A DNA stretch of 64,000 nt. It comes from an uncultured delta proteobacterium (lineage in GTDB: Bacteria > Myxococcota > Myxococcia > Myxococcales > Myxococcaceae). The notes beneath the pieces were generated by a model, which searched no databases, was not told where the DNA came from, and worked only from the letters and a program-made list of their open reading frames with translations. The stretch is taken from positions 79,932 through 143,931 of the forward strand of contig CAVYSY010000027.1 in the NCBI GenBank assembly GCA_963771175.1. Reading direction: 5' to 3'. Shown in pieces: positions 6,862-64,000 of this stretch (position 1 is the stretch's first letter; each line of letters opens with the position of its first letter). The translations under genes and the position numbers were made by a program.

Positions 6862-6864
6862 GGG

Positions 6865-9553: not shown

Positions 9554-9559
9554 GCAAGG

Positions 9560-10376: not shown

Positions 10377-10398
10377 CGGCCAGGGGCGGCGGGAAGGC

Positions 10399-43744: not shown

Positions 43745-43822
43745 GGAGCGGAGTCCCCGGCTGTCCGTGGACAGCGCCGGGGAGCAAGACCCCCTGACTT
43801 GGGGCAGCACAGGTAGGAGGTC

Positions 43823-44311
43823 GTGATGAGCACCAATCTCTGGGTGGAACAATTCCGGGCGCTGCACGCGCGGGCGCGCAAGGGGCAGTTGCCGGAAAGC
43901 GAGAAGAGGCACTACCTGGCCGCCCGGGAGCAGTTCGCGCGGGCGCTGACGGCGGCGCAGGGAATGAGCCTCCCCCCGGGCCAGTCCGCCCGGCGCAACT
44001 TCCGGGTCGCCCAGGGGCTGCAGGTGGACCTGAGCCTGCCGAGCGAGCAGCTCCGCTCCATCACGCTGGACGTGTCGGTGGGTGGCTTCTCGGTGATGAT
44101 GCACAAGCCGCCGCCGGAGACGGAGCTGCACGGCTTCTCGCTGCGGCTGCCGGGCAGCACGGAGCCGCTGGTGGGCCGCGCGAAGGTGGTCTCGGTGCAG
44201 CGCAAGATTGGCACCCACCGCGTCTCCTTCGCCATCCAGGGCCTCGCCGAGAAGGACGCGGAGCGGCTGGAGATGGTCCTGTTCGACCTGGCGCTGGAGC
44301 GCATCAAGTAG
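43823..44311 (+). CDS. PilZ-domain protein, tandem paralogue
   Basis: RRNFR and DVSVGG; shares YLAAREQFARAL with the upstream gene. Confidence 0.85.
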   Translation: MMSTNLWVEQFRALHARARKGQLPESEKRHYLAAREQFARALTAAQGMSLPPGQSARRNFRVAQGLQVDLSLPSEQLRSITLDVSVGGFSVMMHKPPPETELHGFSLRLPGSTEPLVGRAKVVSVQRKIGTHRVSFAIQGLAEKDAERLEMVLFDLALERIK

Positions 44312-44334
44312 GGCCCTCGGGCCCGTGCGCGTCC

Positions 44335-45219: not shown

Positions 45220-45728
45220 GCGCTCCCGCCGGTCGCGCCGCCCACCAGGCCGAGCAGCTCATCGGCCGACAGCACCCGGTCCAGGTCGAGCAGGAGGATG
45301 AAGCGCTGCTCCTGCCGACCCATGCCTCGCAGGTAGTCCACCGGGGTGTGCGTGCCGAAGGAGGGCGGCGGCTCGATGTCGTCCGGCCCGAGGTCGAGCA
45401 CCTCGCTCACGGAGTCGGCCAGCAACCCCAGCGCCGTGCGCTCGCCATCCATCAGCGCCTCGACGATGACGAAGCACGTCCAGCGGGTGATGGGGCGCGG
45501 GCCGAGCCCCATCTTCACCGCGAGGTCCACCACCGGCACCACGCGGCCCCGCAGGTTGATGACGCCCAGCACCGAGGGAGGCATGCCGGGCACGCGGGTG
45601 ATGGGGACGTGCTCGATGATTTCACGGATGCGCAGCAGCTCGATGGCGTACATCTCACCGGCCAGCGAGAAGCCCAGATACTGCGCTGGACGGGCGACCT
45701 CGGAGGCCGTGCTCGTGTTCGTGTTCAT
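45216..45728 (-). CDS. cheW: CheW
   Basis: ITRVPGMP, GVINLRGRVVPVVDL. Confidence 0.95.
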   Translation of the reverse strand: MNTNTSTASEVARPAQYLGFSLAGEMYAIELLRIREIIEHVPITRVPGMPPSVLGVINLRGRVVPVVDLAVKMGLGPRPITRWTCFVIVEALMDGERTALGLLADSVSEVLDLGPDDIEPPPSFGTHTPVDYLRGMGRQEQRFILLLDLDRVLSADELLGLVGGATGGSA

Positions 45729-45743
45729 GGGTTGCTCTCCGTC

Positions 45744-47416
45744 CTAGAAGCGCTTGAAGTCCGTGTCCGAGCCAGGCGCCGCGCGCACTGGCAGCGCCTG
45801 CGCCACCGCCTTCAGCCCCTGAGCCGTCGCGTGCACGGGTGCATGCGCCAGCGGCATCACCACGGGTCTCAGCGGTCTCAACACCGGGTGCCCTCCAGAG
45901 TGCCCCTCCTCCGCCACGCGGAAGAACGTCATCATCTGTTGCAGCGACTCGGCCTGTGCCGCCAGCTCCTCCGCCGTCGATGACAGCTCCTCGGCCGCCG
46001 AGGCGTTTCGCTGCGTCACCTGGTCCACCTGCACCATCGCCCGGTTCATCTGCACCACCCCGCTGGCCTGCTCCCTCGACACCGCCGCCACCTGCTGCAC
46101 CAGCTCCGCCGTCTTGCGAATGGAGGGCACCAGCTCCTTCAGCAGCATCCCCGAGCGCTCCGCCACCTTCACGCTGCTGCTGGCCAGGCTCCCAATCTCC
46201 TTGGCCGCCTTCTGGCTCCTCTCCGCCAGCTTCCTCACCTCCGCCGCCACCACCGCGAATCCCCTCCCGTGCTCCCCGGCCCTCGCCGCCTCCACCGCCG
46301 CGTTCAGCGCCAGCAGGTTCGTCTGGTACGCAATCTCCTCCACGATTCCGATTCGCTCCGCGATGGCCGCCATCGCCTCCACCGTCTCGTTCACCGCCAG
46401 CCCGCTCTCCTCCGCCTCCCGCCGCTCCTCTCACCGCCATGGACTCGAGCTGCTTGCTCGTCTCCGCGTTCTGGCTGATGGAGGCGCTCAACTGCTCCAG
46501 GCTCGTCGTCGTCTCCTCCACCGACGCCGCCTGCGTGCTGGTGCCCTGCGACAGTGACTGCGCCGCCGCGGCCACCAGCCCCGACGCGCCCGAGAGTGAG
46601 CCCACCGCGCCCCTCACCTCTCCCAGCACGCTGCCGAAGCGCTGCACCATCTCCCGCATCCCCTCCATCATCCGCGCCGTCTCGTCCTCGCCCCGCACCT
46701 CGATGACGGTGGTGAGGTCTCCCGAGGCCAGCCTCCCGGTGAGCCTCACGCCCTCGTGGAGCGGCCGGACGATGCCGCGCGACAGCACCCACGCCAGCAG
46801 CACCGCCAGCACCGGTCCCACCACGCCTCCGTCACCAGCATCCGCCTCACCGACGCCACCTGCGCTCGGACACCCGAGCACGGGCGCTGGCGCTGCGCCA
46901 GACGCGTCCTGATGGAGGGTGTCCTCGACGGTGCGCAGGCTCTCCAGGAGCTTCCGCCCCTTGCCGCTCTTCACGTAGGCCAGACCTCCTCCATGGAGGC
47001 GCGGCCCGCGTCCGCATCCCGGCGCAGCGCCACCTGGTGCTCGATGTGCGGGAGGAACTGCTGCTGGTACTGGTCCATCAGTTGTTGGAGCAACTCCTGC
47101 TGGCGGGGGGAACCCGCCGTCAGCTCCTTCAGCCGGGTGTGCGCCTTGAGGACCTGGGCGCGCTGCTGGGGCAGCGGCTCGAGGAGGGACTCATCGCCCG
47201 TGAACGCGAAGCCCAGTGCCCGGGCCTCCATGTCCAGCAGGGCGTTGTCCAGGGACAGCAGCTCGATGCCGGGTTTCGTGGGCGCGGTAGTACCCGTCGG
47301 TGTTCACGAGGCTGCATGAAGAGGCCGTAGGACCCCCAGATGACGGTGGCGAGCAGCGCGACGAGCACGCCGAATCCGAGCTGCAACTTGCGGCTGATGG
47401 TGAGCTTCTCGAGCAT
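45744..47416 (-). CDS. Methyl-accepting chemotaxis protein (CHASE3-like sensor; several frameshifts)
   Basis: [32 protein letters not shown]-terminal DFKRF pentapeptide. Confidence 0.88.
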
Positions 47417-47464
47417 GAGACAGGCCCCTCTAAAGACGGGAGGAAGGAGGAAAGGACGGGGCTC

Positions 47465-49078
47465 TCACATGGCGACACGCTGGCGCAGGGCCGCGCGCAG
47501 GAGGCCCGGCACGTCCAGGACGAGCCCCACGCGCCCGCTGCCGAGGATGGTGGAGCCGGACACTCCGGGCAGGTTCCGGAAGAGGCGACCCAGGGGCTTG
47601 AGGACGTGCTGGCCCTCGCCGTACAGCACGTCCACCACCAACCCCGCCCGGCTACCGCCCTGGCCCAGCACGACGACACTCTCCCGGCCCGGCCCGGGGC
47701 CCTCCACGCCCAGCACGTCGCGCAGCCGCAGGTAGGGCAGCACCCGGCCTCGCAGGTTCAGCACGCCACCGCCGGGCTGCCCGACCCGCTCCACCGGCAG
47801 CTCCAGGCACTCCCGCACCGCATCCAGTGGCAGCACGTACGTCTCCTCGCCCACGCCCACCGAGAAGCCCTGGATGGTGGCCAGCGTCAGCGGCACCCGC
47901 AGCGTCACCGTGGTGCCCTTCCCCTCCTCGCTGCGCAGCGTCACCATGCCCCGCAGGCCCTCCACGCCGCGCCGCACCACATCCATGCCCACGCCGCGCC
48001 CGGACACCTCCGTCACCTGCTCGGCGGTGGACAGCCCCGGCAGGAAGACGAGCTCCTCCAGCTCCTCCACCGTCATCCGCTCGGGCTCCAGCCCCAGCGC
48101 GCGCGCCTTCTCCCTCAGCCTGTCGTGCCGCAGGCCCCGGCCGTCGTCACTCAGCTCCACCACCAGCGAGCCCGGCTCGTGGAAGGCCCGCAGCACCAGC
48201 GTGCCGCACGCCTCCTTGCCCCCGGCCCGCCGCGCCTCCGGCAGCTCCAGCCCGTGGTCCACCGCGTTGCGCACCAGGTGCAGCAGCGGCTCGCGCAGGC
48301 CCTCCACCAGCGCGGTGTCCACCTCCACGTCCTCGCCCTCCAGCACCAGCCGCACCCACTTGCGCTCCCTGCGCGCCAGGTCCCTCACCGTGCGCAGCTG
48401 CTGCCGGAAGAGCGGCCCCACCGGCACCATCCGCACCCGCATCACCTCGTCCCGCAGCTCCTCGTGGAGGCGGTCCGCCTCGAGGTGCAGCTCCAGCGCC
48501 TCCTGCGCCGAGCCCGTGGCCAGCGCCTGCGCCAGCCGTCCCCGGGCGATGGCCAGCTCGCCGGTGAGAGTGGCGATACGGTCCAGCTTCTCCACGTCCA
48601 CGCGCAGCGAGCGCCCGCGCCGCCCCGCCACCGGGGCCTCCTCCGCCTCCGCCGGCTCCGCGGAAAGGTACGGGAGCGCCTGCCGCTCCCGCGCCGTCGC
48701 GCCGAAGGCCCGCAGCCGCTCCAACAGCGACGCGTGGCCCTCTCCAGGCTCCTCCGCTCCCGCCCGAGCGGCCTTCACCAGCTCGCGCAGCCGGTCCACC
48801 ACCTCCAGCAACAGCGACACCTGCTCGTCATCCACCGGCAGCCGCCGCTCCAGCAGCGCCTCCAGCACGTCCTCCAGCACGTGCGAGAGGTCCGTCATGC
48901 CGGAGAAGCCCATCGCGGACGCGGCCCCCTTGAGGGTGTGCGCCCCCCGAAAGATGGAGCGCATCCGCTCCTCGTCCGGGTGTGTCTCCAACCCGACGAG
49001 TGTCTCCTCCATCTCGGTGAGAATCTCCTCCGCCTCCTCGGCGAAGGTCGCGAGCAACCGCTCCCGGTCGAAATCCAC
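47465..49078 (-). CDS. cheA: CheA (short, no obvious P2)
   Basis: FRGAHTLKG, HLVRNAVDHG, SGRGVGMDVV. Confidence 0.95.
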   Translation of the reverse strand: MDFDRERLLATFAEEAEEILTEMEETLVGLETHPDEERMRSIFRGAHTLKGAASAMGFSGMTDLSHVLEDVLEALLERRLPVDDEQVSLLLEVVDRLRELVKAARAGAEEPGEGHASLLERLRAFGATARERQALPYLSAEPAEAEEAPVAGRRGRSLRVDVEKLDRIATLTGELAIARGRLAQALATGSAQEALELHLEADRLHEELRDEVMRVRMVPVGPLFRQQLRTVRDLARRERKWVRLVLEGEDVEVDTALVEGLREPLLHLVRNAVDHGLELPEARRAGGKEACGTLVLRAFHEPGSLVVELSDDGRGLRHDRLREKARALGLEPERMTVEELEELVFLPGLSTAEQVTEVSGRGVGMDVVRRGVEGLRGMVTLRSEEGKGTTVTLRVPLTLATIQGFSVGVGEETYVLPLDAVRECLELPVERVGQPGGGVLNLRGRVLPYLRLRDVLGVEGPGPGRESVVVLGQGGSRAGLVVDVLYGEGQHVLKPLGRLFRNLPGVSGSTILGSGRVGLVLDVPGLLRAALRQRVAM

Positions 49079-49105
49079 TGTGCCCCCCTCTGGAGTTCCA
49101 GCCGC

Positions 49106-49741
49106 TCAGGAAGGAGTCCTGGAGGCGATGCCACGAGCGCAGTAGAGGGCCCGGGCGCCCTCGGTCGCCAGCAGCTCCAGGAGCTCCCGGTCCTCGGGCT
49201 CCAGGCGCTGTTTGTGGGGCAGCAGTCCGAAGAGGACCATCATCCCCAGCACGTGGTGTCCCAGCCGCAGGGGCACGCAGGCGCGCGGCCCCTCGGCGCG
49301 AGCCACCGCGGCCCCGTCCTCCACCAGGTCCGCCAGCCAGGACGAGCCGGTGCGCGCCGCCCGGCCGATGGGGTCCTCGCCCAGTGGCAGCCGGCGGAAG
49401 CGCTCGGCGTCGATGCCCAGGGACATCTGGAGAACCAGCTCGGGCCCGCCCGGGTCCAGCTCGAAGATGCCGAGCATCTCCGAGCCCACCAGATTGACGA
49501 GCAGGTCCTGGAGGATGGCCAGCAGCTCGCGAGGCTCGAGCGACTCATGCAGACGCTGGGAGGCCACGCGCAGGCGCACCAGGTGGGCGAGCTGCGACTC
49601 CACGAGGCCGTGCCGCTGCTCCCGCCACCGCTCCTCTTCCCGGCTCCGCGCGAGCGAGGCCCTCAGTATCTCGTTCTCCGTGCGCAGGGCGGTCACCTCC
49701 GCGCGCAACGACTCGGTGTCCCAACGTTGCTGCTCCCTCAT
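49106..49741 (-). CDS. Coiled-coil plus GAF domain protein
   Basis: GEDPIGRAA, ACVPLR, LEPEDRELLELL; coupled to the flanking genes. Confidence 0.75.
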   Translation of the reverse strand: MREQQRWDTESLRAEVTALRTENEILRASLARSREEERWREQRHGLVESQLAHLVRLRVASQRLHESLEPRELLAILQDLLVNLVGSEMLGIFELDPGGPELVLQMSLGIDAERFRRLPLGEDPIGRAARTGSSWLADLVEDGAAVARAEGPRACVPLRLGHHVLGMMVLFGLLPHKQRLEPEDRELLELLATEGARALYCARGIASRTPS

Positions 49742-50121
49742 GCCCGCCGTCCCTCCTCCAGGTGGCTGCGCACCTTGGCCAGCAGCTCCTCGCCATCGAA
49801 GGGCTTGGTGATGTAGTCGGTGCAACCGCTCTCGAAGCCCTGGCGCACGTAGTGGGGCTCGCCCCGGGTGGTGACGAGGATGATGGGCACCTCCTTCGTC
49901 TCCGCGCGCGAGCGCAGCTCGCGGCACGTCTGGAAGCCATCCATGCGAGGCATGAGGACATCCAGGAAGATGAGGTCCGGGCACTCGACGGCGGCCTTGT
50001 CGAGCGCCTCCTGCCCATCGCGCGCGGTGAACAGCTCATAGCCGCAGTTGGACAGCATCATCCGGTGCAGCAACAGCACGGTGCTGGAGTCGTCGACGAG
50101 GAGGATCTTCTTCTTGGGCAT
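49738..50121 (-). CDS. Single-domain response regulator (CheY-like)
   Basis: ILLVDDS, FLDVLMPRMDG, YITKP. Confidence 0.92.
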   Translation of the reverse strand: MPKKKILLVDDSSTVLLLHRMMLSNCGYELFTARDGQEALDKAAVECPDLIFLDVLMPRMDGFQTCRELRSRAETKEVPIILVTTRGEPHYVRQGFESGCTDYITKPFDGEELLAKVRSHLEEGRRA

Positions 50122-51322
50122 GACGTTCCTCCGGTGTGGGGAGAGGGATGAGACGGCTCAGAGGACTGCTGGCGCGGATGAGCTCGCGCAGTTGCATGAG
50201 CCGCTGGGGGCTCATGCCCAGGAACTGGATGCCCATACCGAGCGGGTACAAGGCGACGCGGCGGGGCACATAGGGATTGGACCAGGAGACGAGGCCGGGC
50301 CCCTCGAGCACCTCGCGGGTGGTGGGCAGGTGGATGCGCAGCTCCAGCGCGGCGCCGGGGCGTGCGGGCACCAGGGTGCGCACGAAGAGGGCGCCCGGGC
50401 TGAGCGCGCTGGAGAAGCAGGAGCTCCAGGAGAAGGCGCCCACCTCGCGGAACTCCACCGGGCAGACAAAGGGCACGCGCTCGTCCACCAGGAGTGCCAT
50501 CAGGTTGCGCTGCAGCAGACCGTTGATGCGGGCCAGCAGGTGACGGGGCGCCAGGGTGCGCGCGCTCATCCACACCTGCCCGAAGGAGGGGAGCTCGGAG
50601 GGCTCGCCGCTCGTCACCACGGCGGTGTGGACGCGGCCCAGGCGCGTCTCGGTGCGCAGGCGCTCCACGCGCATCATCTCCTCGGTCGAGGTGACGGCGG
50701 TGCGCACCAGCAACAGGTGGATGGGCTCGCCGTGCTCGGCGGCCAGGGCCACGGCGCGCTCGGAGGTAGGGGCGTACAGCAGGTGGTGGCCACACGCCTC
50801 CAGGTGCGAGCCCAGCCCCTCGGACATTCCCGGCACCTCGCCCACCAGCAGCACGGTGCGCGGGTGGCGCCGCTCCATCACCCGGGGCGCGGACGAGGGG
50901 GGCTTGTCGCGCAGCACGTCGAAGCGCGACTGCAGCTCGGTGATACGCACCGGGCCGAGCACGCAGTCCTCCGCGCCGCTGCGCACGCACGCCTCCAGCA
51001 GCTCCGCGGGCGTGTTGTCCGACACGACGAGGAGGATGGGGACGTCCCCGTTGTGGGGGTGGCTGCGCAGCACCGAGCAACCGGGCCCACCCTCCTGCGG
51101 CAGGGAGCGCCAGTCCACCAGCACCACCATGGGGCGGAAGCGGCCCAGCTCCACGCGGGCCGCCAGGAGGTTGTCCACCAGGACCACCTCGCAGCCCACG
51201 GTGCGCAGCAGGGGAACCAGGTGCATCCGCAGCTCCTTGGCGGCATCGACGACCAGCACCCTGCGGGACACCTCCGCGGACACTCCCGACTGAGGGGACA
51301 GCGCGTGCGTGGTGAGCGGCAT
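50036..51322 (-). CDS. REC-REC-PilZ (TIGR02266-like) protein; true stop probably near 50158
   Basis: Two degenerate receiver domains, then DERVP...LSPGALFVRT...GMGIQF. Confidence 0.7.
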   Translation of the reverse strand: MPLTTHALSPQSGVSAEVSRRVLVVDAAKELRMHLVPLLRTVGCEVVLVDNLLAARVELGRFRPMVVLVDWRSLPQEGGPGCSVLRSHPHNGDVPILLVVSDNTPAELLEACVRSGAEDCVLGPVRITELQSRFDVLRDKPPSSAPRVMERRHPRTVLLVGEVPGMSEGLGSHLEACGHHLLYAPTSERAVALAAEHGEPIHLLLVRTAVTSTEEMMRVERLRTETRLGRVHTAVVTSGEPSELPSFGQVWMSARTLAPRHLLARINGLLQRNLMALLVDERVPFVCPVEFREVGAFSWSSCFSSALSPGALFVRTLVPARPGAALELRIHLPTTREVLEGPGLVSWSNPYVPRRVALYPLGMGIQFLGMSPQRLMQLRELIRASSPLSRLIPLPTPEERHAQEEDPPRRRLQHRAVAAPDDAVQLRL

Positions 51323-51823
51323 GATGTGATTCCCCCCGTGGCACCGTGAGACAACCCCCACCAGCCCTCGCCCCGCCGGAGCTCCTCCCCATTCCTTGAC
51401 GGGCGCAAGGAATCAGGGAGCACCGCGTGAAAGTCACATGAAAGGAAATACGGGAAACCTTTCCTGCTTGCCTCCTGTCCTCGGGAACGGGGGGTCGGCG
51501 CGTGAGCGCTAGCGAACAGTTTCCGTCACGAGGGGGTCACTCCCCCTGATTCTCTCGGGAGAACGGGGAGTTGCTCCGTTCACCGCCGGACGGACGGAAG
51601 CGCTCGCGCGGAGTCGGACATGCCCCTACCGAGCGTCTTCTGTTTTCAAATACACAGCATTCGAGAAGCGGGTCCAAGCCAGGGAAAACATTCCATTTCG
51701 GGAGTCAGGAATGATCCACCGGAACAACAACTCTCATTTAATAAGACACCCGTGCGACAGAAATTGAACCCGTCCACGTCCGCGAGCAGCCCCCTCGGGG
51801 TGACGCGCGGATCGCCCTCCGCA

Positions 51824-52543
51824 TCACCCCGGCGCCAAGGGCGACAACGGCCGCAGCAGCCCAGCCCCGCTCAGCAGCGTCTGGACGCGGGCGGCCAGCG
51901 CGACGTGCTCCGGGTTGGCGGCGGTGAACCGCTCGGGCGTGAGGATGACGAGAGTGCCCTGGTCCTCCACGGGCTCGACACGCACGGGAGCGGGCAGAGG
52001 GGGCACGGTGCCGCGCAGCCGCGAGAAGTACATCACCCAGCCCACGAAGGTTCCTGGCTCAGCGCTCTCCGTCACGCTGTCGCGGTGCTCCTCAGACGTA
52101 GCAATGCCCCACTCCGGCTCCCAGGCCAGTGCCATGGCGCGCAACACCTCGGTCATCACGGAAGCGGTGAGTACCCGTGCTGCGATAGGACCTCGCGTGT
52201 AGGGGCTGAGCACGCAAGAGGACGAAAGCCAGGGAGCAGCGAAACCGCACTTCGCTCTGACAGTGGACGTTTCCCGAGGGTTGTCGCCCGCCCACAGCCA
52301 GAAAGAGAAGCCATCATCAATCCGATGCTCCGCCTCTGCGAACAGCTTCTGGAATCTCGCGGCGTCCGTGTTGAGCTGGCGTTTGCGCGCTTCCTCGAAG
52401 GAGCCAGCCGTCTGATGCCAGCGGTTCCACGCCGGGTCGCAACGACCGAGGCCTCGAAAGAACCGCTCCGCGCGCCGTGCGCAAGCCTCAGCGGATTCGG
52501 GCCGGGCCAGCCAGTAGGAGCCGGCGTAATAGGTCTCTTGCAT
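51824..52543 (-). CDS. Imm52-family immunity protein
   Basis: ETYYAGSYWLAR, MALAWEPEWG, FVGWVMY, GTLVILTPERFT; directly downstream of the toxin. Confidence 0.85.
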   Translation of the reverse strand: MQETYYAGSYWLARPESAEACARRAERFFRGLGRCDPAWNRWHQTAGSFEEARKRQLNTDAARFQKLFAEAEHRIDDGFSFWLWAGDNPRETSTVRAKCGFAAPWLSSSCVLSPYTRGPIAARVLTASVMTEVLRAMALAWEPEWGIATSEEHRDSVTESAEPGTFVGWVMYFSRLRGTVPPLPAPVRVEPVEDQGTLVILTPERFTAANPEHVALAARVQTLLSGAGLLRPLSPLAPG

Positions 52544-52557
52544 CGAACGGCTACTCC

Positions 52558-55268
52558 TCACGAGGCTGGGGAAATGTGGATGACCTCAATCTTGAGGCCC
52601 TCTCCCTTGAACAGCTTTCTGAGTGCACCAGCAAGTTTCTCTTCAGCGACCATCCACCGGATGGGCGTCCCCCGGGCGGCTGCGACCTGGCGTTGCGCCT
52701 GCTCAAGCATTTTGGGCCCCCCCTCGAAGAACTCCACGAAGTTCAGCTCGTCATCAATCCACTTCGCATATCCGGTGCCCTTGGCCTCGAGCAGAACCCC
52801 CTTGTCGAAGCCATCGAAGTCCACCTTCTCGTCACCCATCTTGACACGGTAGGCGTAGCCCTTGGGGGCGCCCGTCACCTGCGCCTGGTAGTTCCGGGCG
52901 CTCTCGGACATGGACTCGTCCACCTGCACCCAGTGACCCGGGCCCCCGGAGAGGGGCGGCTGGGCCCCGCCTCCTCCGCTTCCTCGCGCCATCATGGCCA
53001 CCGCGGTGGGAGCGAGCGCGAGAGTGACACTCTCGGCACTGATGGCGACCGACTCCACCTGAGCGAGGGCCCCGGCCGAGTAGCGGATGCCAAGCTGGGC
53101 CTCGGCCATCACCGCCGCCTGCCCGGCCCCCGGAAGCGTGGGCATCGTCGAGGCCATCCCCGCCGCCGTGTTCCCCACCGCCACCGTCGCCAGCATCACG
53201 AACGCTCGCGCCGCCTTCTCCCCCATCACCTCCCCGAACTTCTCTCCAGCCTCCCGGATCTCCTCGAAGGAGGTGGCCTGCTCCACCTCCTTCATCAGGA
53301 CGAGCCAGCCCTCGATGAGGTTCCACACCGTGTCCCATCCCAGGTACGCCACCGCGCCCACCGTCATCAGCACGGCCACCCCCTTCGAGACGGGCTCGGG
53401 CAGTGAGAGCAAGATGGCGTACATGGTCAGGCCGCCCACGACTGTGGCCACCACCGCCTGGGGGCTCACCAGCCTGGCCAGTTCCTCCTTCATAGCCCCC
53501 AGTACCTTGCTGTGAGCAATCGCCATGGCCAGCGCGTACCTGGCATCCCCGTCCAGGAAGGGCTTGTCCACCAGCAGGCGCAGGCAATCTCCACCCCCCC
53601 ACGTGTGCTCACACCACAGCAGGTAGCAGCGCTTGAGTTCCTCGTCCTCGGGCAACAGGCGCAGGTTCCTGGTGTTCCCCGGCGCCGAGGCAATGAGGCG
53701 TTGGCTCCCGCCCTCGTACCGGTACCAGCCGCTTCGCTCGGGAACACCGAACACCTGCCGAGCGTGCTCCAGGGGCCGCTCGACCAAAGGCACAGCGGGG
53801 GCATGTTGCGCGACGGCCTTCTTGAACTCCTTTTCGCTCACCGCCACCGGCTCCACGTCGCGGCGAGGAGTGTGGACAATGGGCTCGCCCTGGCCTGTGT
53901 CCAAGCGGACGACGGCCCTCGTTGAGGCGCTGCACCCTGAGGAGGCTGGAGGAAATAACTTTTCCCTTTCAGGGAAGCACACAACCCATCGTAATGGGAT
54001 GGCTTGTGGCTACTTGGGAAGGAGCATGTAGTTCCATTCTCCATGAAAATTATCGCGCTGGAGGTTCAATGTTCGCATCTCCTCGTCACGTACCTTGACG
54101 CCCGTGGGGTAGTCCGCCATGTCGAGACTGGCCTGTATGTGGAGTCCCTTGGCCGTCGTCGTACTGCCAATCAGATTGACGATGACTTCTCGGCTCTCCA
54201 GCGGACGACCGCGCCAGTTGTGAGTAATGTGGCAGAACATCCGATGCTCAATCTTGTTCCACTTGCTGGTACCAGGCGGCAGGTGGCTCACGGCGATCCG
54301 TAGACCCGTTTCGTCCGCCAGCCGCTGCAACTCCACCTTCCACAACCGGGCGCGGGCGCTATTGCTACCGCCGCTGTCGGCGATGATCAGCATTTCCTTG
54401 GCCTTCGGATAGCGCGCCATCCCCATTTCCAACCACCACGTTCGAATAGTCGCGAGGGCGAAGGCGGGGGTGTCATGCGTCACTCCGACGCTCACCCAGC
54501 CTTCGTTGGCCTCTACGTCGTAGACGCCGTAGGGCAGGGCTTTGCCCAGCTCCTTGTCCACGAAGTCGTAGACGCGCACATGGGATGGCCGACCCTTGGG
54601 GTGCCACTCCCGCCCGGCGTTCTTGAAGTCCCCGACCAGTTCCTTCTTCTTGGCGTCCACAGAGATGACCGGACCTCGTCCCTGGAACTCCTTCACCCGC
54701 TCGTTGAGGTACTCGAACTGTGCATTGCGTCCGGGTGGCCTCCGGTCTTACGTTGCTTGCAGGCTATAGTCCAACTGGTGAAATGCTCGCCCGACCGTAT
54801 GGGCACTCAGCCATGGCCGTGTGCAACTCCTCGCGAGCTTGGACGTGCTCTTGCACGTCCAACGCGGGATGGTATCGCCGCGTCCGGTCACCAGCCTCAA
54901 GGTCTGCCAGCAATGTCACATCCTCTTCGGTTGCCTTCTTCGGCCTCCACCGCGACGGGCGCGGTGCACTCCAAGGAAGCCTGCTCGAGCCTCCCATCCC
55001 GTCGAAGTGTCGGAGACAGTCCCGTGTGGGTCCACTGGGTTTGCCCCATCGCGACTCGCCTCGCTGCCGCCCACGCGTCGGACCGCCTCATTCATGCCAG
55101 CGCGCAGCTTCGTACTTGCTCTGGATGAACTTTCGCAATGCGTTCTCGTCCATCCGCCTTCCTCGCTGCTGCCGAATTCATTGGAGCAACAACTGAAAGG
55201 AAAAGTTATTTCCTCCAGCCTCCTGAGAGCAACACGAACAGCAGCTATATCACCCCCGAGCGCGGCAT
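52558..55268 (-). pseudogene. SitA5-like lipoprotein polymorphic toxin with C-terminal Tox-REase-5, interrupted by ISAzo13 and carrying a TAG in the signal peptide
   Basis: Removing the IS gives AGGAGG then MPRSGVI*LLFVLLSGCSASTRAVVRLDTGQG; C-terminal YQAQVTG, VDFDGF, LLEAKG, QAQRQ. Confidence 0.85.
53941..55223 (-). mobile_element. ISAzo13-family IS, transposase ~54010-55153 with frameshifted 5' half
   Basis: IRs GGAGGCTGGAGGAAATAACTTTTCC at both ends; 3-bp TSD TGA; ISVDAKKKELVG, PPGTSKWNKIEHR, FHGEWNY. Confidence 0.92.
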
Positions 55269-55369
55269 ATGGAGCCTCCTGGCCAGGGCTCCCGCGCGCC
55301 GGGAGCACCACAGGAGATTTACAGGGGAGCCATGATTGCCCGTCAATCACGGAGCTCGCGGACACCTGG

Positions 55370-55590
55370 AGCGAAGGGAACGTCAGCCCTTCGAGCGTCG
55401 CCGTGCGCGTGCCTCCTCTATCCCAGAGTTTGAGGGCGAAGGTCCCCTGCGACTCGTGCGGCTGCGCATCGGCCTCCACCATGACGACCTGCTCCCCGTT
55501 CTCCCCCAGGGCAACGGACTCCTCCTGCCACACCGGCAGCACGGGCAGCGCACGTCCGCCAGGGCTCTCTGCTCCAGCGTGCGACATACG
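55370..55590 (-). pseudogene. C-terminal remnant of a DUF2381 (TIGR02268) protein
   Basis: VLPVWQEE...VMVEAD...GTFALKLWDRGGTRTATLEGLTFP. Confidence 0.6.
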
Positions 55591-55640
55591 TGCAACAAGG
55601 ATGGAGCCAACTTCGAACCCTCGTTACTACGCTTAAGACA

Positions 55641-55666
55641 GTGGAGGCGGCGGGAATCGAAGCCGC
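55641..55666 (-). other. tmRNA-like 3'-end fragment (probable att site)
   Basis: GCGGCTTCGATTCCCGCCGCCTCCAC: T-arm plus Ala-type acceptor strand CGCCTCCA; no 5' half nearby. Confidence 0.65.
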
Positions 55667-56215
55667 TAAGGGCGGAGCCACCTCCCTCGGGATCAGCGGC
55701 ACCCCCCATTTTCCCTCTGAAAATGGGGCGCCCATCTGTCCGGGCGATGTCCAGGCGCGTCCGCTTGGTTTGGTCCTTTTTGGTCCCCTTGGACTCCTTG
55801 CTGGGCGAGAGTGGCGAGCCATTTAGCCATGAATATATCTTCTGACGCCGATATCTTAGCCTACTACTCCAGCCCTGGTGCTCTCACCGGCCCGAAGTGT
55901 CCACCATCGCCGCCGTGCTGCCTTCGGTGGGGCCGCGCATTGGCGCCTGGGCCCGGCGTGTGCTCCACACTGGAAGGCGGCCAGGGCTGACGGACCGAGG
56001 AGGCCTCCAGGCGCTGCTTGAAGATCTGGACTTTCCGCAGGCGTTCAGCGTCCTGATGCTGCCAAAGTAACGGGCCGGAGGCACGGCAGTCACCTCCGGC
56101 ACTAGTTAGGCAGCAGCGGTTCGGCCGAATCCCATGAGCCGCCATGCTTGCCGGCCTGTCCTACGTGTCAGGTCGAGGAGAAATGGTGGTGCCTTGAGGC
56201 ACCACCACTCCAAAA

Positions 56216-56344
56216 GGGTGTGGTTCTGATACTGAGCAGGGAGGGCGTCCTCTCCCGAGGGAGAACAGGGGGATTTCCGAGCGGCCTGCCGACCCTCCCA
56301 GGGGGCGTCTCCACAGGAGGCTGCTCAGTATGAGAACCACACCC
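56216..56344. mobile_element. 129-bp MITE with ISKra4-type ends
   Basis: 24-bp TIRs GGGTGTGGTTCT(G/C)ATACTGAGCAG; 8-bp TSD CTCCAAAA at 56208-56215 and 56345-56352. Confidence 0.9.
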
Positions 56345-56531
56345 CTCCAAAATCTCCGGGATTTACTGAGCTGGCTCGTCTACAGTGAATCTTGATGAGA
56401 GACGTGGGGAAGTTGAGAGACGTTCGACCGAACGCTGGCCGCCAGCCGCTCCACGTGGTCCAGCCTGGTGATTCTCCGGTGGCACCGACGGAGCCAACGC
56501 CTGCGCTAACGACACTGGCGAGAACGAGGCG

Positions 56532-57506
56532 TTGATCCTCAGTCCGTTGCGTTACCCCGGGCTCGAAGCGGCGGTTCGCAGGGTACGTTCGCCGAACGCT
56601 AGAGCTGAATGACTTGAAGCCACGCCTCTTCGTGGAGCCGTTCGCGGGAGGCGCGAGCGTCTCCCTTCAACTCCTGAACGATGGCGTGGTGGAGAAGATC
56701 GGTCTCATCGACCTCGACCCATTGGTCGCAGCCTTCTGGCGCACGGTCTTCTTCGACACGGACTGGCTCGTCAGGCGGGTGGAGCGGATGGCGGTTACGC
56801 TCCGCCAATGGAAGGCATGGCACAAGGCTCGGCCCCGCAGCATTCGCGACCGCGCCCTCAAGTGCCTCTTTCTCAACCGCACGAGCTTTTCAGACATAAT
56901 CGCGCCTGGCGCAGGTCCCATCGGTGGGTGGGCTCAGAAGTCCGAGTACGACGTGGCCTGCCGGTTCCCACGCGAGACGCTGGTTCGCCGAATCGACAGG
57001 CCGCGAAGCTCAGCGACCGGGTGGCGTTCGTCTGGTCTATGTCGTGGTCCGAAGGGCTTGCGCGGATGCGGCAGTTGCAGCACCAGGCGAGATTCCCGGC
57101 GAGCGACTTTCTGTACCTGGATCCCCCTTCTTCGAGAAAGCGGACGGCTTCTACACGCACTACTTCTCGGATCGACAGCACACCGAGAGCTTCGCGACCA
57201 TCTTCTGATCGAGAAATCGAAGTGGATCCTGTCCTACGACTCAGCCCGAAGGGTGGAGGAGTTGTATGGACGCGCTCCGAAGCAGGTGGATCTGCTCTAC
57301 AGCGTCGCCGCGAAAGCGTCCGCAACGGCAGGTGCAGGAGATCGTGCTCTCCAACGTGGACTCGTTGCCCGAGCAGACTCGGCTGTGGCGCCGGCAGTCG
57401 GAGTGGCTGACCACGAGGTCGCGGCTGCCATCGCGGTGGCGAATGGTGACAAGCCACCAACCTCAACACGCCGTTCCTGCGAGGTCGGGAAGGCAGCAGG
57501 AGCTAA
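56532..57506 (+). CDS. DNA adenine methyltransferase, Dam/D12 class (frameshifted)
   Basis: SPLRYPG.K, FVEPFAGGASV, FLNRTSFS, YLDPP, WILSYD. Confidence 0.85.
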
Positions 57507-57509
57507 CGG

Positions 57510-59459
57510 ATGCAGAACATGGGTGGGATTCTGAAGGACCATCCGCTCGCGAAGCTGATTCCAGCCGGACAACTTCGTCGGCTGGGTATACGGATCGGGT
57601 ACGACCGCGCGTCGGTCATGACGAATGACTTTGGAAGGCGAACGCGCTCGGCATCCCGCACAACTGCTTTTGATGCTGCGTCATTCAAAGCCGGACGAGT
57701 TCCAGAAGGCCAAAGATGGCGGACCAAGGAGGTGCTCTCTCCCGTGATCGGTCGGCGAAGTTGCCCCAGGATGACGATTGGTGCGGACGCGGTGGACTTC
57801 TTCCAGCAGCAGACGCAGAAGTTCGACCGCGCCTACGATGACATCACCCAGAACCAGATGCAGTTCGGCGGGCTGAGTGCGCATTTTGGGCACCTTCTAT
57901 GTCAACCGGAGGCGAGCTGTGCCTGGAAGTGACATGAGTCGTTCGCGATGGCGGCGGCTAAAGTGTACCGGCCCGCGGCGACTCTGTCTCACAATCGTCA
58001 ACCACGTGATCCGCTCCGCCGAAGGCCGCCGCCGAGGCTGCGCCCTCGGTTTGAAGAAGCCATGACCCTTCAAGATCGGAACCGTTCGGTACACTCGACC
58101 GACGTTCACCGCAGCCCTCCGACTTCCTGGCGCGACGCACCGCCGTGCTTGGCATGACCCGTACCGGCAAGTCCAACATGGTCAAGCAGATGGTTGCCGT
58201 CGTCAAGCGTGTGGCCGACGACTTCGGCACGCCTATCGGCCAGATCATCTACGACATCAACGGCGAGTACGCAAACGCCAACCAGCAAGACAAAGGCGCC
58301 CTGGCCGACATCTACACGACGCGAGACCGTTCGCTACCGGATGCTTCAGCACCGAAGGCTTCGAGGAACTTCAGAACAACTTCTACCTCCAGCTCGACGA
58401 AGGCTTCAAGACCATCCGCGACTTCGTCCAGGAGCGCAAACTCGGCGGCCAACAGGACATGGACGTCTTCGTCAACACGTCCTTTGACGAGCCTGATCCG
58501 CAGGAGATCAGCGCCACAACCGCTGGAAAGTCCGGGTCGCCGCCTATCAGGCCGCTCCTGTACGAGGCCGGCTTCGAGGCGCCCCACGGCCATCGTGGTC
58601 AAGTTCAAGGCCAACAAGGAAGTGCTTGACGCCGTCGCAAGCGCGGGTGGTCCCTCGCCCAGCCCAACTCTGGCTTCACCCTGCCCCAAGCCGTCGAGTG
58701 GTTCCAGGCCGCTCGTGAGGCCAACGGCGGCTCCAACAACACCTCCGTAGCAGCAGCGGCAAGCCATGGTTCGACAACGACACACGCGCCATTCTCAATC
58801 TCATCGCCAACAAGAACGACGGCGGCACGTTCATCCACGGCTACAACAACCTGACCGATGCCATTCCCTACCACTCCCCTCGCCGCAGCAAAGAAGTCGG
58901 CGATGAGATCTACGCACATCTGGAGGCCGGCAGGATCGTCATACTGGACCTTTCGGTGGGCAACCCAGATCTGCGCGAACGTATCAGCACCCAGATCGCT
59001 GCGGACATCTTCAACAAGTCGATGAACAAGTTCGTGGAGGGCAAAACTCCGCCCAACATCGTCGTCTACATCGAGGAGGCCCACAATCTGATCGGCAGGG
59101 GAATGGAACTGACCGCCACCTGGCCGCGCTTGGCCAAGGAAGGCGCCAAGTATCGAATCGCGCTTGTCTACGCCACTCAGGAGGTGTCTTCGGTTCACCC
59201 CAACATTCTGGCCAACACGGAAAACTGGTTCATCACCCACCTGAACAACACCGACGAGATCAAGCAGCTTGCCAAGTTCTACGACTTCGGCGACTTCGAC
59301 CGCTCCCTCCTGCGCGCCCAGGATGTCGGCTTCGCCCGTGTCAAGTCGCTTTCCAGCCCTTACGTCATTCCCACTCAGATCGACAAGTTCGATCCGAATT
59401 CGACGAAATCTGCGGTCCTGAGCGGAGGCGGTCTATGCCCTTACGAACCAGTTCGCTGA
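57510..59459 (+). CDS. HerA-like ATPase/helicase, DUF87 (frameshifted)
   Basis: AGGAG RBS; Walker A LGMTRTGKSN, IYDINGEY, Walker B YIEEAHN, YATQ. Confidence 0.85.
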
Positions 59460-60836
59460 CAAGACTTCGCACTTCGACATTGTGCGGAATCCGGAGGTGT
59501 GGCCGCTCTGGAGGACTGCGACTACCTGACGACGCCATCCGACGAGGAGGGTGCGTCGATGAACGCCAAGTCCATAACGCCGCCCTGAACTGACGGGGTG
59601 CCGTTGCCGGAGCGGGTCATCGCGGTCGACGGCAGTTTCTACGAGTCTCGGATCGACGAGAAGCTGCCGAGCACGAAGGTCGGCTACGTGAAGGTGGGAG
59701 CCGTGCTGATTGATCTTGCGGAGTTTGAGGCGCTTCGCGACGGCGAGTTTGTGGACCCATTCGGTCGCGCGGCTCAAGGAGAACAACGTCGCCGCTGACC
59801 TTCTCGTTGCCGAGCTCGAACATTCGCTCCAAGGGGGCAAGCTCGGTCGGAGAGCGTTTAGGGCAGCGGTCGACGAAGGTCTCAGGCGCGACGGACTCGC
59901 TTTGACCAGGAGATCCATCGACCAGCTTGCGGACGACGCTTTTCGAGCTTGCGGCGCGGACGAAGACGGGACTGGGGACCCGAGTCAAAGTGCTTCTTCA
60001 CCGATGTCCTGGGGAGTCCTGCGAGCCAGGGCCGTTCCAGTCGAAGCAATCCCGGAGTCCAGAACTGCCTCACTTCCAGTCGGAGGTCTTCCGTCGGACT
60101 GCTTACGCCTGTGGGAGGAGGTGAGCGATTTCCAGTCAAATGCAGGTGCCTCTGTCGCGTTTCATGCTGGTCTGAGCACATGCTTCCGGTTCACTACTTC
60201 CGGTACCTGCTAATCGTAGCGCCGTGGCTTCTCTCCGCGGTGGCATTCTTCATCGACGGCCCGCTGGCGGTCTTCGGTACCGCCGCGTGGCTCCATGCCT
60301 CGATCCTGAACTATCTCGCGCACGTGAATCAGCATCTAGTCGGGATGGGACTACGCCCGATGTTGGTGATCGGATTACAGAAGACTGGCCAGGTCGTGGA
60401 CCACGCGATGCTAGTGAGCAAATTCATCCCGAACGACCGGCTGCTCGCCATTGATGACGACTACCGTTACAGGTACATCCTCGCGGGTCGTGACCCCTCA
60501 GCAAACGGATTCGGCGGGGAGACATATTACGGGCAGGACTTTATCTACCGGACACCAAGCGGTCGGACCTTCGTCTTTGGGTTGCCCTACCCGTTTGCCA
60601 CCAAGTCGGAGGCGAAGGACTTTACGAAGGAGAAGGTGCAGCTCCAGAGATACACGGAACTGCCTCGGGCTCTGGGGCTGATCAAGCACTTCGAGTCTGA
60701 CCTCTATCAGAACGCGGTCATCCCCATCGCGCTCGCGCACCGCTACACAGCGATCAGCCTCATGCCTGGTGGCCGTGTTCTGGACGTGATGACGAAGCAG
60801 GCGCTCAACCTGAAGGGCGGTGGCGACAAGAAGTAG
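59435..60836 (+). CDS. NurA-family nuclease (frameshifted)
   Basis: GGAGG RBS; VIAVDGS, FFIDGPL, GLQKTG, PIALAH. Confidence 0.8.
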
Positions 60837-61120
60837 GGGAATCCCATCGTCAGTGGATTCAACCGCGGCAGCGGCCTTTCGCGTGGAACAGGATCCACTC
60901 ATGGCTAGCACCAAACGCGCAGAGGGCCCTTTTTTGGTGCACATGGCGGTTCCGCTGCCCCCGAGGGAAGATGACCTAGCCTCCCTCTGGATGCGCGGAA
61001 CTTTGCGGGTCACCCGTTTCGACCCTTTTGCGCGTTTCGTTTGGTGCTAGTGCGCACTGAATCTTTGCCACCGCGCGAATCAAACAGGGCGTATCTGAAC
61101 CAATACCGGAGTGTGGCAAA

Positions 61121-61677
61121 CATGGACAGGACATCGGAGAAGCAACTCATTGCGGAGGCCAAGCAGTTCTTTGAGGAAAAAGGCCTTGTAGTTTCCGCAG
61201 AGTGTCATTTTGGAGAGGACGATGACGAACTTCCGGACGTCAAGATCGCTTTTAATCGCGACCAATGGAAAGGGGATTTTCCCGATTATCTGTTGCTGGA
61301 AGCAAAATCTCATCATTCAACAGATTCACCAAATACGATCAACAAGATCTTTGGCCAGTTATTAAAAGAAAGTGGCAAGGTGGTAGAAGAGAGCCTAGAA
61401 GGCGCGACATTCTGTCTCGGTGTCTTGATACCAGAAGATGCTGGAACGTGGATTGTCGAACGAGGGGACGGATAGGGAAAAGACGCACCGTCGCACTTCT
61501 GGCATCGCATATTATCAAGAGGGATTTCGTCGCATCCCGGCGGACAAATACCGGATCTTTGGCGCGCTTGTGGATGCACGATACGTCGTTACTTACTCAA
61601 GGATTTATCAGCGCATACAGGTGTTCGATTGGAATGGCTTCTATCAGCGCAAGGCGCCAATCCTCGTTCTGTCCTGA
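61121..61677 (+). CDS. Putative PD-(D/E)xK nuclease (frameshift near 61470)
   Basis: E...PDVKI...LLLEAK...IFGQLL; markedly AT-rich codons. Confidence 0.55.
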
Positions 61678-61904
61678 GCATTCCGCCATATTAGAAAGAA
61701 ATCCGACTCAGCCATTGGCCAAGCGGGTGGGGGGGGGGGAAGTCTAAGTAACAGTCGTTGTTGTAGAGATTACCCACAAGCTCGGACCCCTGCCGCGTTC
61801 CTCAAGGAAGGTGGGGCCTGGCAGGCCTGTCCCAAAGGTGGCTGCACGGCCTGCCCACTGGCTTGCGTGTAGCCCACGCGGCACCCGGCAGCGGCCCTCC
61901 TACG

Positions 61905-62365
61905 GGGTGTGGTTCTCATACTGAGCAATTGGTTGCCTGCCAAGGGGCCTGGAGAGCGAGGCTTGAGGCGAGGAGAGGGCTGCCCCATCTCGCTGTGACA
62001 CCTGCGGAGGATGCCATGGCGAAGACGGTGCTGGTCGAGGTTCCGGAGGAGCTCGCGGGAGCAGTGAAGAGGTTCGTGGAAGAAGTGGAAGGTGCGATGC
62101 CGGAGACACGTGGGGGCCGGGCCGTGGACGTGGCCAGCTACGAGCGGGCCGTGGAACAGAGTGCGGCCGGGCTGGAGCAGGAATCCATGCGGAGGTTGCT
62201 TCAAGCGCTCGACGTCGATGCGCCCCACGTCATCATCCACGGAAAGCCCGCCCAGGGTGATCGGGTCGAGGGCCGGCGCGGTGGTGTGCAGGCTGCTCTT
62301 GGCCGTCTCCGCCGTTTCCGGCTTCGTGCCCGTTTAGAGCGCACCATCACTCCGTCTCCGGCCCC
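61905..62365 (+). mobile_element. ISKra4-family remnant (left IR plus truncated transposase from 62016)
   Basis: IR GGGTGTGGTTCTCATACTGAGCA; GGRAVDVASYE...LQALDVDAPHVII N-terminus. Confidence 0.7.
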
Positions 62366-62434
62366 GTACCCGTCCGGCCAATGACGTGCTGCGGAGCTTG
62401 GCCGGGGTGAGGGGGCCGACGGACCCTGCCGGGC

Positions 62435-62764
62435 ATGTCGAAGCAGAGAGAGAAGCCGGAGTGGGTCCGAGTCGCCGAGGAGTACGAGGCGAGCGGGCTG
62501 ACGCAGAGGGAGTTCGCGCAGCGCCGGGGCATGACGCTGAGCACGTTGCAGTCGTGGGTGTACCGGCGTAGGCGTCAGGAGAGCACACCTGTCGTGGAGC
62601 CAGTGCGGCTGCTGCCGGTGCAGGTGGCGGCGGCCCCGGTGGTGAGCGGGAGCGACACCCTCGAGGTGCTCACCGCCAGTGGCGAGCGCGTGAGCTTCGC
62701 GGTGGGCACGGATGTGGAGTACGTGGCCCGACTGGTGGCCGCGCTGGGGCACAAGTCGTGCTGA
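62435..62764 (+). CDS. tnpA: IS66 accessory protein TnpA (HTH)
   Basis: SGLTQREFA...TLQSW, RLLPV. Confidence 0.85.
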   Translation: MSKQREKPEWVRVAEEYEASGLTQREFAQRRGMTLSTLQSWVYRRRRQESTPVVEPVRLLPVQVAAAPVVSGSDTLEVLTASGERVSFAVGTDVEYVARLVAALGHKSC

Positions 62765-63153
62765 CGCTGCCCGGCTCGGTGAGGATTCTGCTGGCCACCC
62801 AGCCGGTGGACATGCGCAACAGCATTGATGGGCTCATGGCCCTGGTGCGCACCGCCTGGGGCGAGGACGTGTACTCGGGGCACCTCTTCGTCTTCGTCAG
62901 CCGCAAGGGCGACAGGGTGAAGATTCTCACCTTCAGTCGCGGCGGCTTCGTCCTCTACTACAAGCGCCTGGAGACGGGTCGCTTCCGGCTGCCGCGCGTG
63001 GACGCGGACGCCCAGGCGGTGCAGTTGGACGCCACGCAGCTCACCATGCTGCTGGACGGCATTGATGTGGCGCGCGTGGAGCGCCCGCGCGCCTGGACTC
63101 CTGCCCGCCAGCCTTCTGGAGAAGTCGCCTCGGAGAAGTTACCGCCCCAGTAG
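62758..63153 (+). CDS. tnpB: IS66 accessory protein TnpB
   Basis: PVDMRNSIDGL, HLFVF, YKRLETGRF, LLDGID. Confidence 0.92.
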   Translation: MLTLPGSVRILLATQPVDMRNSIDGLMALVRTAWGEDVYSGHLFVFVSRKGDRVKILTFSRGGFVLYYKRLETGRFRLPRVDADAQAVQLDATQLTMLLDGIDVARVERPRAWTPARQPSGEVASEKLPPQ

Positions 63154-63168
63154 GGTGTTGGCGGGGGC

Positions 63169-64000
63169 ATGGCCCGTCACCTGCCGCTGGACCATTTCTG
63201 CCCCTGGCGCGAGGAGGCCGAGGAGCTGCGCGAGCGGCTGACGGCGCTGGAGGCCAAGACGACCGCCCTGGAGCGGCACGTCTTCGGCAGGAAGGCCGAG
63301 CGGCTGCCGGGAGTCCAGCAGCTGCTGCGACGCGAGCAGGCCGGCGAAGACACCGAGGCACGCCGGCGGCAAGCACTGGACAAGCGCCGCCAGCGTGCGG
63401 CGCGCCGGGCCGAGGCTCCCACCCGGCAGGTACACCACCTCGTCCCCGAGGCGCAGCGCATGTGCCCCGCGTGCGGAAGCGACGAGCTCAAGCCGCTGGG
63501 GCAGGGACGCACCACGGTGGTGTACGAGTACATTCCGGCCCGCTTCGAGCGACAGGTGCACGTGCAAGAGAGGCTGGCGTGCGCGTGCGGCAAGGGCGTG
63601 GTGACAGCGCCCCCGCCGCCGAAGGTGGTGGACAGGGCGAGTACGGGCCCGGTTTCATTGCCCACGTGGTGGGCTCCAAGTGCGCCGACTCCATGCCCTT
63701 GCATCGCCTGGCGCAGAGGCTGGAGCGCGGCGGCGTGCCCATGAGTCGCAGCACGTTGACGGACTTGTTCCACCTGGCCGCCGAGGTGCTGTCGCCCGTT
63801 TCCGTGCGCCTGTTGCAACACATTGCTCGTGCCGAGGTGGTGTGGGCTGACGAGACGCCCTTGCGCGTGTTGGACGTGAAGAAGACGAGCCTGGGCTACC
63901 TGTGGACATTCCTCACCTGGAATGAAAAGGGCGAGTGGCTCATTGGCTACCGCTTCAGCATGGGCCGCGCGGGCAAGACGCCCAAGGACGTGCTGGGTGT
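63169..64000 (+). CDS. tnpC: IS66 transposase TnpC (partial, frameshift near 63640)
   Basis: FGRKAE, zinc finger CPACG, WADETP, GYLWTF. Confidence 0.9.

Follow-up and report, generated by a model that had tools for sequence, protein, structure and literature searches.

A frame-broken DNA methyltransferase-HerA-NurA cassette on a low-GC island of an uncultured delta proteobacterium: a candidate ATP-driven restriction-modification-like system

The DNA analysed here, called the window throughout, is a stretch of 64,000 nucleotides (nt) that forms the last 64 kb of contig C27 (CAVYSY010000027.1) in the genome assembly of an uncultured delta proteobacterium (GCA_963771175.1; 9.83 Mb in 58 contigs, 69% guanine plus cytosine (GC), rated 81.7% complete). 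On its plus strand, between 56.5 and 60.8 kb, lie pieces of three genes in shifting frames. The present work is concerned with this cassette (positions 56529-60836), in which a D12 adenine methyltransferase is followed by a HerA (DUF87) ATPase and a nuclease of the NurA fold, all three genes being frame-broken. The three genes are as follows.

About 56529-57534, plus strand: D12-class (Dam-like, alpha-type) N6-adenine DNA methyltransferase, matched by PF02086, with 4-6 single-base frameshifts
57510 (ATG) to 59459 (stop), plus strand: HerA/DUF87 ATPase of the FtsK-HerA type, about 650-700 amino acids (aa), matched by PF01935 and by the PADLOC HerA models
59435 (ATG) to 60836 (stop), plus strand: NurA-fold (RNase H-like) nuclease with a zinc-ribbon insert, TdpB-like, matched by PF09376 on the fragment 59589-59798

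Because the limits are about 56529-57534, 57510-59459 and 59435-60836, the genes abut or overlap, with the nuclease start overlapping the HerA stop by 25 nt. The three abutting and co-oriented genes of the original prediction, an earlier note on this DNA, are thus borne out by the three Pfam families together with the gene limits. It is noted that only 3 of the 12 submitted frame fragments scored against Pfam, because every cassette gene is chopped into frame pieces. For the methyltransferase, PADLOC gives matches to PD-Lambda-5_B (E 7.7e-48) and MTase_II (E 2.4e-33), the FAGG motif (S-adenosylmethionine (SAM)-binding) and the catalytic DPPF motif can be read once the frame is corrected, and frameshift-aware alignment to L034, the closest of the related loci discussed below, gives 176/308 identical residues. 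With the same kind of alignment, HerA has 427/628 residues identical to those of L034; the Walker A motif GMTRTGKS and the Walker B-like motif VVYIEEAH are present, and 80 of the 83 family-invariant residues are retained. The nuclease has 272/450 residues identical to L034 and retains 10/12 invariant and 17/19 near-invariant residues, both of the lost invariant residues falling in the shift-dense zinc-ribbon region. On the window cassette PADLOC yields generic HerA matches and a weak mad8 match, while no PADLOC or NCBIfam model matches the nuclease.

The shifts were counted by frameshift-aware alignment of the DNA to the intact relatives L034 and L002, with both used as guides. The trio contains in total about 29-31 frameshifts in 4.3 kb, plus 1-2 in-frame stops. 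In HerA all 17 shifts are located before 58742, with an in-frame stop at 58063, and in the nuclease all 8 are located before 60174, so that the stretches 58741-59417 and 60173-60815 are free of shifts. That frameshifts are present had been stated in the original prediction, while their number (4-6 in the methyltransferase, 17 in HerA and 8 in NurA) had not.

Similar lesions are found elsewhere in the same assembly. At G000:C25:92475-100856 the essential genes rpoB and rpoC are divided by single-base insertions or deletions (indels) into 3 and 4 frame pieces, respectively, with 5 frameshifts in 8.2 kb, and since the two genes are essential their shifts cannot be real and the assembly must be noisy. 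In the core DNA at 43820-51340 (7.5 kb), comparison with four same-genus genomes gives 14 window-specific indels, 12 of which are not multiples of three. Indel errors are genome-wide in this assembly, and they are therefore probably the reason for its completeness score. The indels of the trio and those of rpoB/rpoC are alike, being single bases that lie mostly outside homopolymers. Long-read errors of the homopolymer type were considered as the cause of the shifts and rejected, because only 4 of the 31 sites have a run of at least 4 within 6 nt and, as a second point against such errors, homopolymers are fewer in the trio than in the core.

Further evidence comes from X1, a short-read contig of 6172 nt from a public run, which is colinear with 56500-60900 at about 85-98% identity (roughly 90%) and shows 37 small indels relative to the window, 12 of them among those listed; the parts of the window uncovered by X1 are uninformative. 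At 56559, 57322, 57561 and 58321, 1-nt differences where X1 stays in frame coincide with the inferred shifts. Moreover, once the frame is corrected, 27 of the 40 listed substitutions relative to X1 are at third codon positions, against 13 expected by chance (P ~1e-5), and they lie to either side of shifts. Purifying selection has thus acted on the corrected frame. Two other contigs, X2 and X3, correspond to the window in short scattered pieces only, and none of the public sequencing runs was found to contain the source reads, the highest shares of the sampled words being 0.13, 0.05 and 0.05. We consider errors of the consensus, in an assembly that is noisy, to be the most likely source of the frameshifts of the trio, and hold this with good confidence. 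If the shifts are such artefacts, the organism probably carries an intact cassette.

The other explanation is that this genome carries a dead relic of the same defence-type module, real indels having inactivated all three genes. The local density of shifts exceeds the base rate seen in rpoB/rpoC and in the adjacent core by a factor of 5-10, and the neighbouring island genes Imm52 and Tox-REase-5 read through in one frame, from which it follows that real decay of this copy has to be allowed for. The in-frame stops point in the same direction, as does the presence of insertion sequences (IS) around the cassette, defence modules being often lost. However, the same non-homopolymer type of indel is present in rpoB and rpoC, where it is impossible as a real change, the substitutions relative to the closest relative are mostly of the synonymous type in the corrected frame (the 27/40 given above), the 80 of 83 HerA invariant residues survive, and thirty neutral indels should bring with them many random substitutions and more stops. 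A dead relic is hence considered possible and rather unlikely.

We now turn to the relatives of the cassette, which were collected by a scan of one genome per species and comprise 34 loci. They belong to Bacillota, Pseudomonadota, Bacteroidota, Acidobacteriota, Cyanobacteriota, Lentisphaerota, a metagenome-assembled genome of Woesearchaeota and others, and in these loci the nuclease lies next to HerA whenever the contig permits it. A DNA methyltransferase adjoins HerA-NurA in 31 of the 34 loci, with the following distribution over methyltransferase classes.

D12 class, 22 loci: 17 upstream and co-oriented, 2 divergent, 3 downstream of HerA-NurA
N6_N4 class, 9 loci: 7 downstream, 2 upstream of HerA-NurA
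None detected, 3 loci: L009, cut at the contig end; L027, a 2.6-kb contig; L024, where a transposase replaces the nuclease

In the HerA tree the two methyltransferase classes are split by one branch with support 89/90, and the phyla are intermingled. The methyltransferase class follows the HerA tree with one change, and this amounts to module swapping as in restriction-modification (R-M) systems. No restriction endonuclease family is conserved across the 34 loci, the conserved partners being HerA and NurA, and in the 112 flanking open reading frames (ORFs) of the relatives no other conserved partner besides the methyltransferase was found. Among the neighbours of the relatives are JetD, DUF3375, AbiEii, Schlafen/AlbA_2, an SLFN-g3 helicase and UvrD with PD-(D/E)XK, and further PLD with ResIII, Imm11, an integrase and TniQ. 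Relatives are also located on five plasmids and in two Vibrio prophages, in which HerA, a NurA-sized ORF and a type II methyltransferase lie between integrase and excisionase. One of these, L049 (PQ189353.1, 1-5751), is a prophage of Vibrio cyclitrophicus where HerA is annotated as two ORFs, a 459-aa ORF stands in the nuclease position, the type II methylase is convergent and the trio is flanked by integrase and excisionase. The methyltransferase of L002 matches PD-Lambda-5_B with E 9.3e-122. Candidate intact cassettes are offered by Geothrix fermentans DSM 14018 (L013), Hydrogenophaga taeniospiralis NBRC 102512 (L011), Jeongeupia (L016) and Lihuaxuella thermophila DSM 46701 (L019); in this family the catalytic Asp of NurA belongs to a DGS motif, and HerA has an N-terminal region of about 220 aa. 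The original prediction had named, as checks of itself, the co-occurrence of the three genes among homologues and a defence setting of these homologues; the former holds with the linkage in 31/34 related loci, and the latter with loci that lie among defence and mobile genes.

Two of the related loci have peculiarities of their own. In L034, a gene for a class-V aminotransferase (cysteine desulfurase-like; 3070-4314) lies just upstream of the methylase, and an unmatched 150-aa ORF (7846-8295) is inserted between HerA and the nuclease. In L004, at 4747-11273, three DNA methylases are located at HerA-NurA, one of the D12 class upstream and N6_N4 and C5 ones downstream, with a Schlafen/AlbA_2 gene upstream of the three methylases.

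These data bear on the possibility that the cassette is a housekeeping HerA-NurA pair for the resection of double-strand-break ends, as in archaea and Deinococcus, with the methylase an unrelated neighbour. The gene pair is the same, and the HerA P-loop core and the RNase H-like fold of NurA are common to both. By contrast, the cassette is accessory, horizontally spread and linked to a methylase, with no linkage to mre11/rad50: its distribution is patchy, only 1 of 17 other genomes of the same genus having a match (43% identity), the HerA groups cut across phyla, and no Mre11/Rad50 families are present in the 112 flanking ORFs of the relatives, nor, in agreement with the original prediction that mre11/rad50 are missing from the window, among the 78 ORFs of the window. 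Moreover, the cassette HerA scores only 27-45 bits against the NCBIfam equivalogs of repair HerA, whose cut-offs are 800-970, and a methyltransferase is linked in 31/34 loci. End resection is thus a very improbable role for the cassette.

The closest structural kin of the ATPase and the nuclease are found in another system. When the HerA family profile is compared with the PDB, TdpA (8wet_A) is matched with E 6.3e-34 and 120.7 bits, whereas the next chain is at 2.8e-16 and 62 bits, the chains of Sir2-HerA, DUF4297-HerA and archaeal HerA all being at E 2.8e-16 or weaker; the single sequence of the L034 HerA matches TdpA with E 9.6e-20. For the nuclease, no significant match to the PDB was obtained with either the single sequence or the profile (TdpB, E 0.58). 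An AlphaFold model of the L034 nuclease was made with a 27-sequence alignment (predicted local distance difference test (pLDDT) 85.5; predicted template-modelling score (pTM) 0.86). The model matches TdpB (8wfd_G) with a Foldseek E of 3.5e-08 and a VIA Z of 18.4, at a root-mean-square deviation of 4.5 over 303 of 358 residues, while archaeal, Deinococcus and Thermotoga NurA-type structures give Z of 10-12.8.

TdpABC is reportedly (An et al., Nat Chem Biol 2025) a phosphorothioate (PT)-based R-M-like system of thermophiles, in which PT is said to block translocation by TdpAB. The restriction half of TdpABC, like that of the present cassette, consists of a HerA-type hexameric ATPase and a NurA-fold nuclease, with one linked modification gene. 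The differences are that the cassette has, in place of the PT-forming TdpC, a DNA base methyltransferase (of class D12, or N6_N4 in the sister clade) as its modification gene, that HerA here has about 700 aa versus 586 in TdpA, that the nuclease here has a zinc-ribbon insert and no significant sequence match to TdpB, and that the hosts here are mesophiles of many phyla while those of TdpABC are thermophiles. In the part of the literature on TdpABC drawn on here, tdpC alone is described as making the modification of this phosphorothioate-based system (PMC12914056). The best reading of the comparison, as far as sequence profiles and the predicted structure go, is that the cassette would be the base-methylation counterpart of TdpABC.

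With the data presented above, we lean modestly towards the reading that the locus is a horizontally mobile three-gene cassette acting as an ATP-driven R-M-like system, the window frameshifts being most likely consensus errors and an intact copy being probable. In this mechanism, the D12 methyltransferase would mark the host's DNA with N6-methyladenine at a short motif. HerA, as a hexamer, would dock on a NurA dimer, as in TdpAB, and load on DNA, and it would then translocate the DNA with ATP, feeding the NurA nuclease sites. Methylated host DNA would be spared in this way, while unmethylated incoming phage or plasmid DNA would be degraded. The reading is built on the domain identities, on the retained catalytic and invariant residues, on the near-obligate methyltransferase linkage, on the mobile and defence contexts and on the kinship with TdpA and TdpB.

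Several points weigh against it. Complex formation, methylation sensing, DNA degradation and phage protection are steps that we wholly infer, and in the literature searched we found no experiment on any member of the cassette family. No sequence-specific endonuclease or methyl-reading domain was identified in the cassette. The density of shifts and the unbroken neighbours, discussed above, stand against an intact copy, and this copy is in any case not readable as intact, so that it is a poor exemplar and too garbled to serve as a reference. Furthermore, the one studied operon with this gene content, that of Thermus ICETh1, donates DNA and does not restrict it, according to the portion of the report used here (PMC5365140). 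Finally, the kind is not undescribed, because TdpA and TdpB are the nearest kin of its ATPase and nuclease, and the ICETh1 operon is in print.

The ICETh1 operon deserves a closer comparison, since of the look-alikes it alone has been studied by experiment and it provides the main functional rival, as far as the consulted part of its description extends. The operon, from Thermus thermophilus, is described there as containing the type IIG enzyme Tth111II, a NurA-like nuclease, the HerA-like TdtA and a PF01555 methylase (PMC5365140). It is thus like the cassette in having a NurA-like nuclease, a HerA-like ATPase and an N4/N6 methylase in one operon on a mobile element, while it differs, in the same part of the source, in that its phenotype is DNA donation and that it has a type IIG enzyme and belongs to an integrative and conjugative element (ICE) with an integrase; the two are likened by gene content only. 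By analogy, the cassette could be a DNA-donation or export device, whose nuclease and ATPase process DNA and pump it out of the donor. What speaks for this is that both TdtA and the NurA-like gene of the like operon in ICETh1 are, on the available portion of that account, needed for transjugation, that is, DNA donation (PMC5365140), and that members of the cassette family are also located on mobile elements. However, no type IIG enzyme, relaxase or transfer genes are present in the 112 flanking ORFs of the relatives or in the window flanks, a near-obligate small stand-alone methyltransferase together with swapping of its class is a signature of self-marking, and among solved structures it is the restriction complex TdpAB that comes closest. 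DNA donation is hence considered improbable.

Returning to the R-M-like reading, we compare the cassette with other known systems. The cassette shares with classical type II R-M a methyltransferase that has the SAM-binding and catalytic motifs. Sir2-HerA (Nezha) and DUF4297-HerA resemble the cassette in that they couple an effector to an ATPase of the HerA family and lie in defence islands, and the HerA models of PADLOC and NCBIfam match in part, with 67.2 bits for HerA_antiphage against a cut-off of 800 and 44.3 for HerA_antiphage_2 against 850; the partner here, however, has the NurA fold, no Sir2 or DUF4297 is present, and those systems have no methylase. With PD-lambda-5 (Vassallo et al. 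2022, PMC9519451) the cassette shares a methyltransferase of the PD-Lambda-5_B family, whereas the partner there is, in the part of that paper drawn on, neither HerA nor NurA, and PD-Lambda-5_A models of PADLOC match no cassette protein. As for MADS (methylation-associated defence system), PADLOC gives for the cassette proteins only weak mad8 matches at the P-loop region of HerA, with E from 1e-7 to 4e-14, and none of the other genes of the mad1-mad8 set is matched among these proteins. MANTIS and the HerA of the SXT/R391 hotspot were rejected as candidates, having unrelated architectures. In the literature searched, no named system with the HerA-NurA-methyltransferase trio was found.

The statement of the original prediction that no characterised system has this trio stands insofar as PADLOC names none, and it has to be given up insofar as the kind is already known from the TdpAB kin and from the published ICETh1 operon. 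In the same way, its proposal of an R-M-like system in which methylation marks self is supported by the methyltransferase linkage in 31/34 loci, by the defence and mobile contexts and by the lack of Mre11/Rad50, and it is qualified by the existing precedent, by a function that comes from homology and context, and by the broken state of this copy. The best-supported description is that the cassette would be a methylation-linked variant of the TdpAB kind and is not without precedent, and the window copy, judged from its family matches, adds a putative variant with a D12 / PD-Lambda-5_B-type methylase. More generally, with confidence that is evenly balanced, we propose that ATP-driven restriction systems made of HerA-NurA and a stand-alone methyltransferase may form a widespread class that has no name as yet, the base-methylation counterpart of TdpABC. 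The ring translocase would in this case read base methylation (N6-methyladenine (m6A), or N6/N4 in the sister clade) as it threads DNA into NurA, and prophages, plasmids and small islands would have carried the class through bacteria and some archaea.

The setting of the cassette in the window is as follows. Synteny with same-genus genomes spans chemotaxis and response-regulator genes and ends at about 51.35 kb, past which the GC content falls from about 0.70 to about 0.60, with recovery near 62 kb. The features of this region outside the trio are listed here.

51827-54009, minus strand: polymorphic-toxin pair Tox-REase-5 and Imm52, at the left edge of the low-GC island
53937-55227: IS of the ISAzo13 family, with 32-nt inverted ends that are 94% complementary
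56198-56345: small hairpin element, the left bracket, with repeat copy A at 56198-56238 (plus strand) and copy B at 56321-56345 (minus strand)
61123-61475, plus strand: small low-GC ORF after the nuclease, whose frame seems to shift near 61470
61887-61927, plus strand: repeat copy C, the right bracket, from the repeat search and the genome-wide count
62572-64000: IS66 orf2 (TnpB_IS66) and IS66 transposase, running off the contig end

The hairpin element has 24-nt arms and an 81-nt spacer. Copy C contains a perfect 24-nt inverted repeat of 56322-56345 and is an 80% direct repeat of 56198-56238, and the perfect inverted 24-nt pair is spaced by 5558 nt. The 24-mer has just 3 copies in the 9.8-Mb genome, all of them here, at 56215 (plus), 56322 (minus) and 61904 (plus), and it brackets the cassette; these repeats may be the ends of a mobile unit. 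The original prediction had placed the cassette to the right of a tmRNA-like attachment site (att) and among a miniature inverted-repeat transposable element (MITE), IS remnants and a nuclease. The att is unsupported, because no tRNA, tmRNA or Rfam family is present: ARAGORN finds 0 tRNA or tmRNA genes in the window and Rfam gives 0 matches at gathering scores over the whole window, and at E<=1 over 51000-64000 only a weak match to SorX appears (E 0.37; 20.7 bits against a cut-off of 46.6). The setting is recovered as ISAzo13, IS66, Tox-REase-5 and the hairpin element, while an abundant MITE is rejected, the 24-mer having merely 3 genomic copies.

The toxin, an ORF of 483 aa, has a C-terminal Tox-REase-5 nuclease domain (E 5.9e-17), and the Imm52 that comes after it is full-length (E 3.8e-107). 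In one frame, the ISAzo13 transposase covers positions 68-308 of its 308-position profile, and since the match starts at 68 its N-terminus is probably frame-shifted. In the IS66 transposase the zinc-finger and DDE parts are in different frames, and the contig probably breaks at the IS66 repeat. The ORF at 61123-61475 has no Pfam match and no homologue in the 34 related loci; a PD...EAK motif, seen by eye only, would suit a PD-(D/E)XK fold. Between this ORF and the right repeat lies a G-rich run at 61728-61740, part of which is a homopolymer of about 11-12 G.

The practical lesson of the present work is one of assembly quality: as rpoB and rpoC are frameshifted too, the intact homologues make better exemplars than the window copy. 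If the R-M-like reading is true, a methylation-based branch would be added to the HerA-NurA/TdpAB type of immunity. HerA-NurA complexes have been suggested, in the part of the source consulted, to act against foreign DNA and not in repair alone (PMC12977600), and the cassette would give further support to such an action on foreign DNA. Moreover, it would raise the question of how a DNA-threading ring ATPase, or its nuclease, tells methylated from unmethylated DNA.

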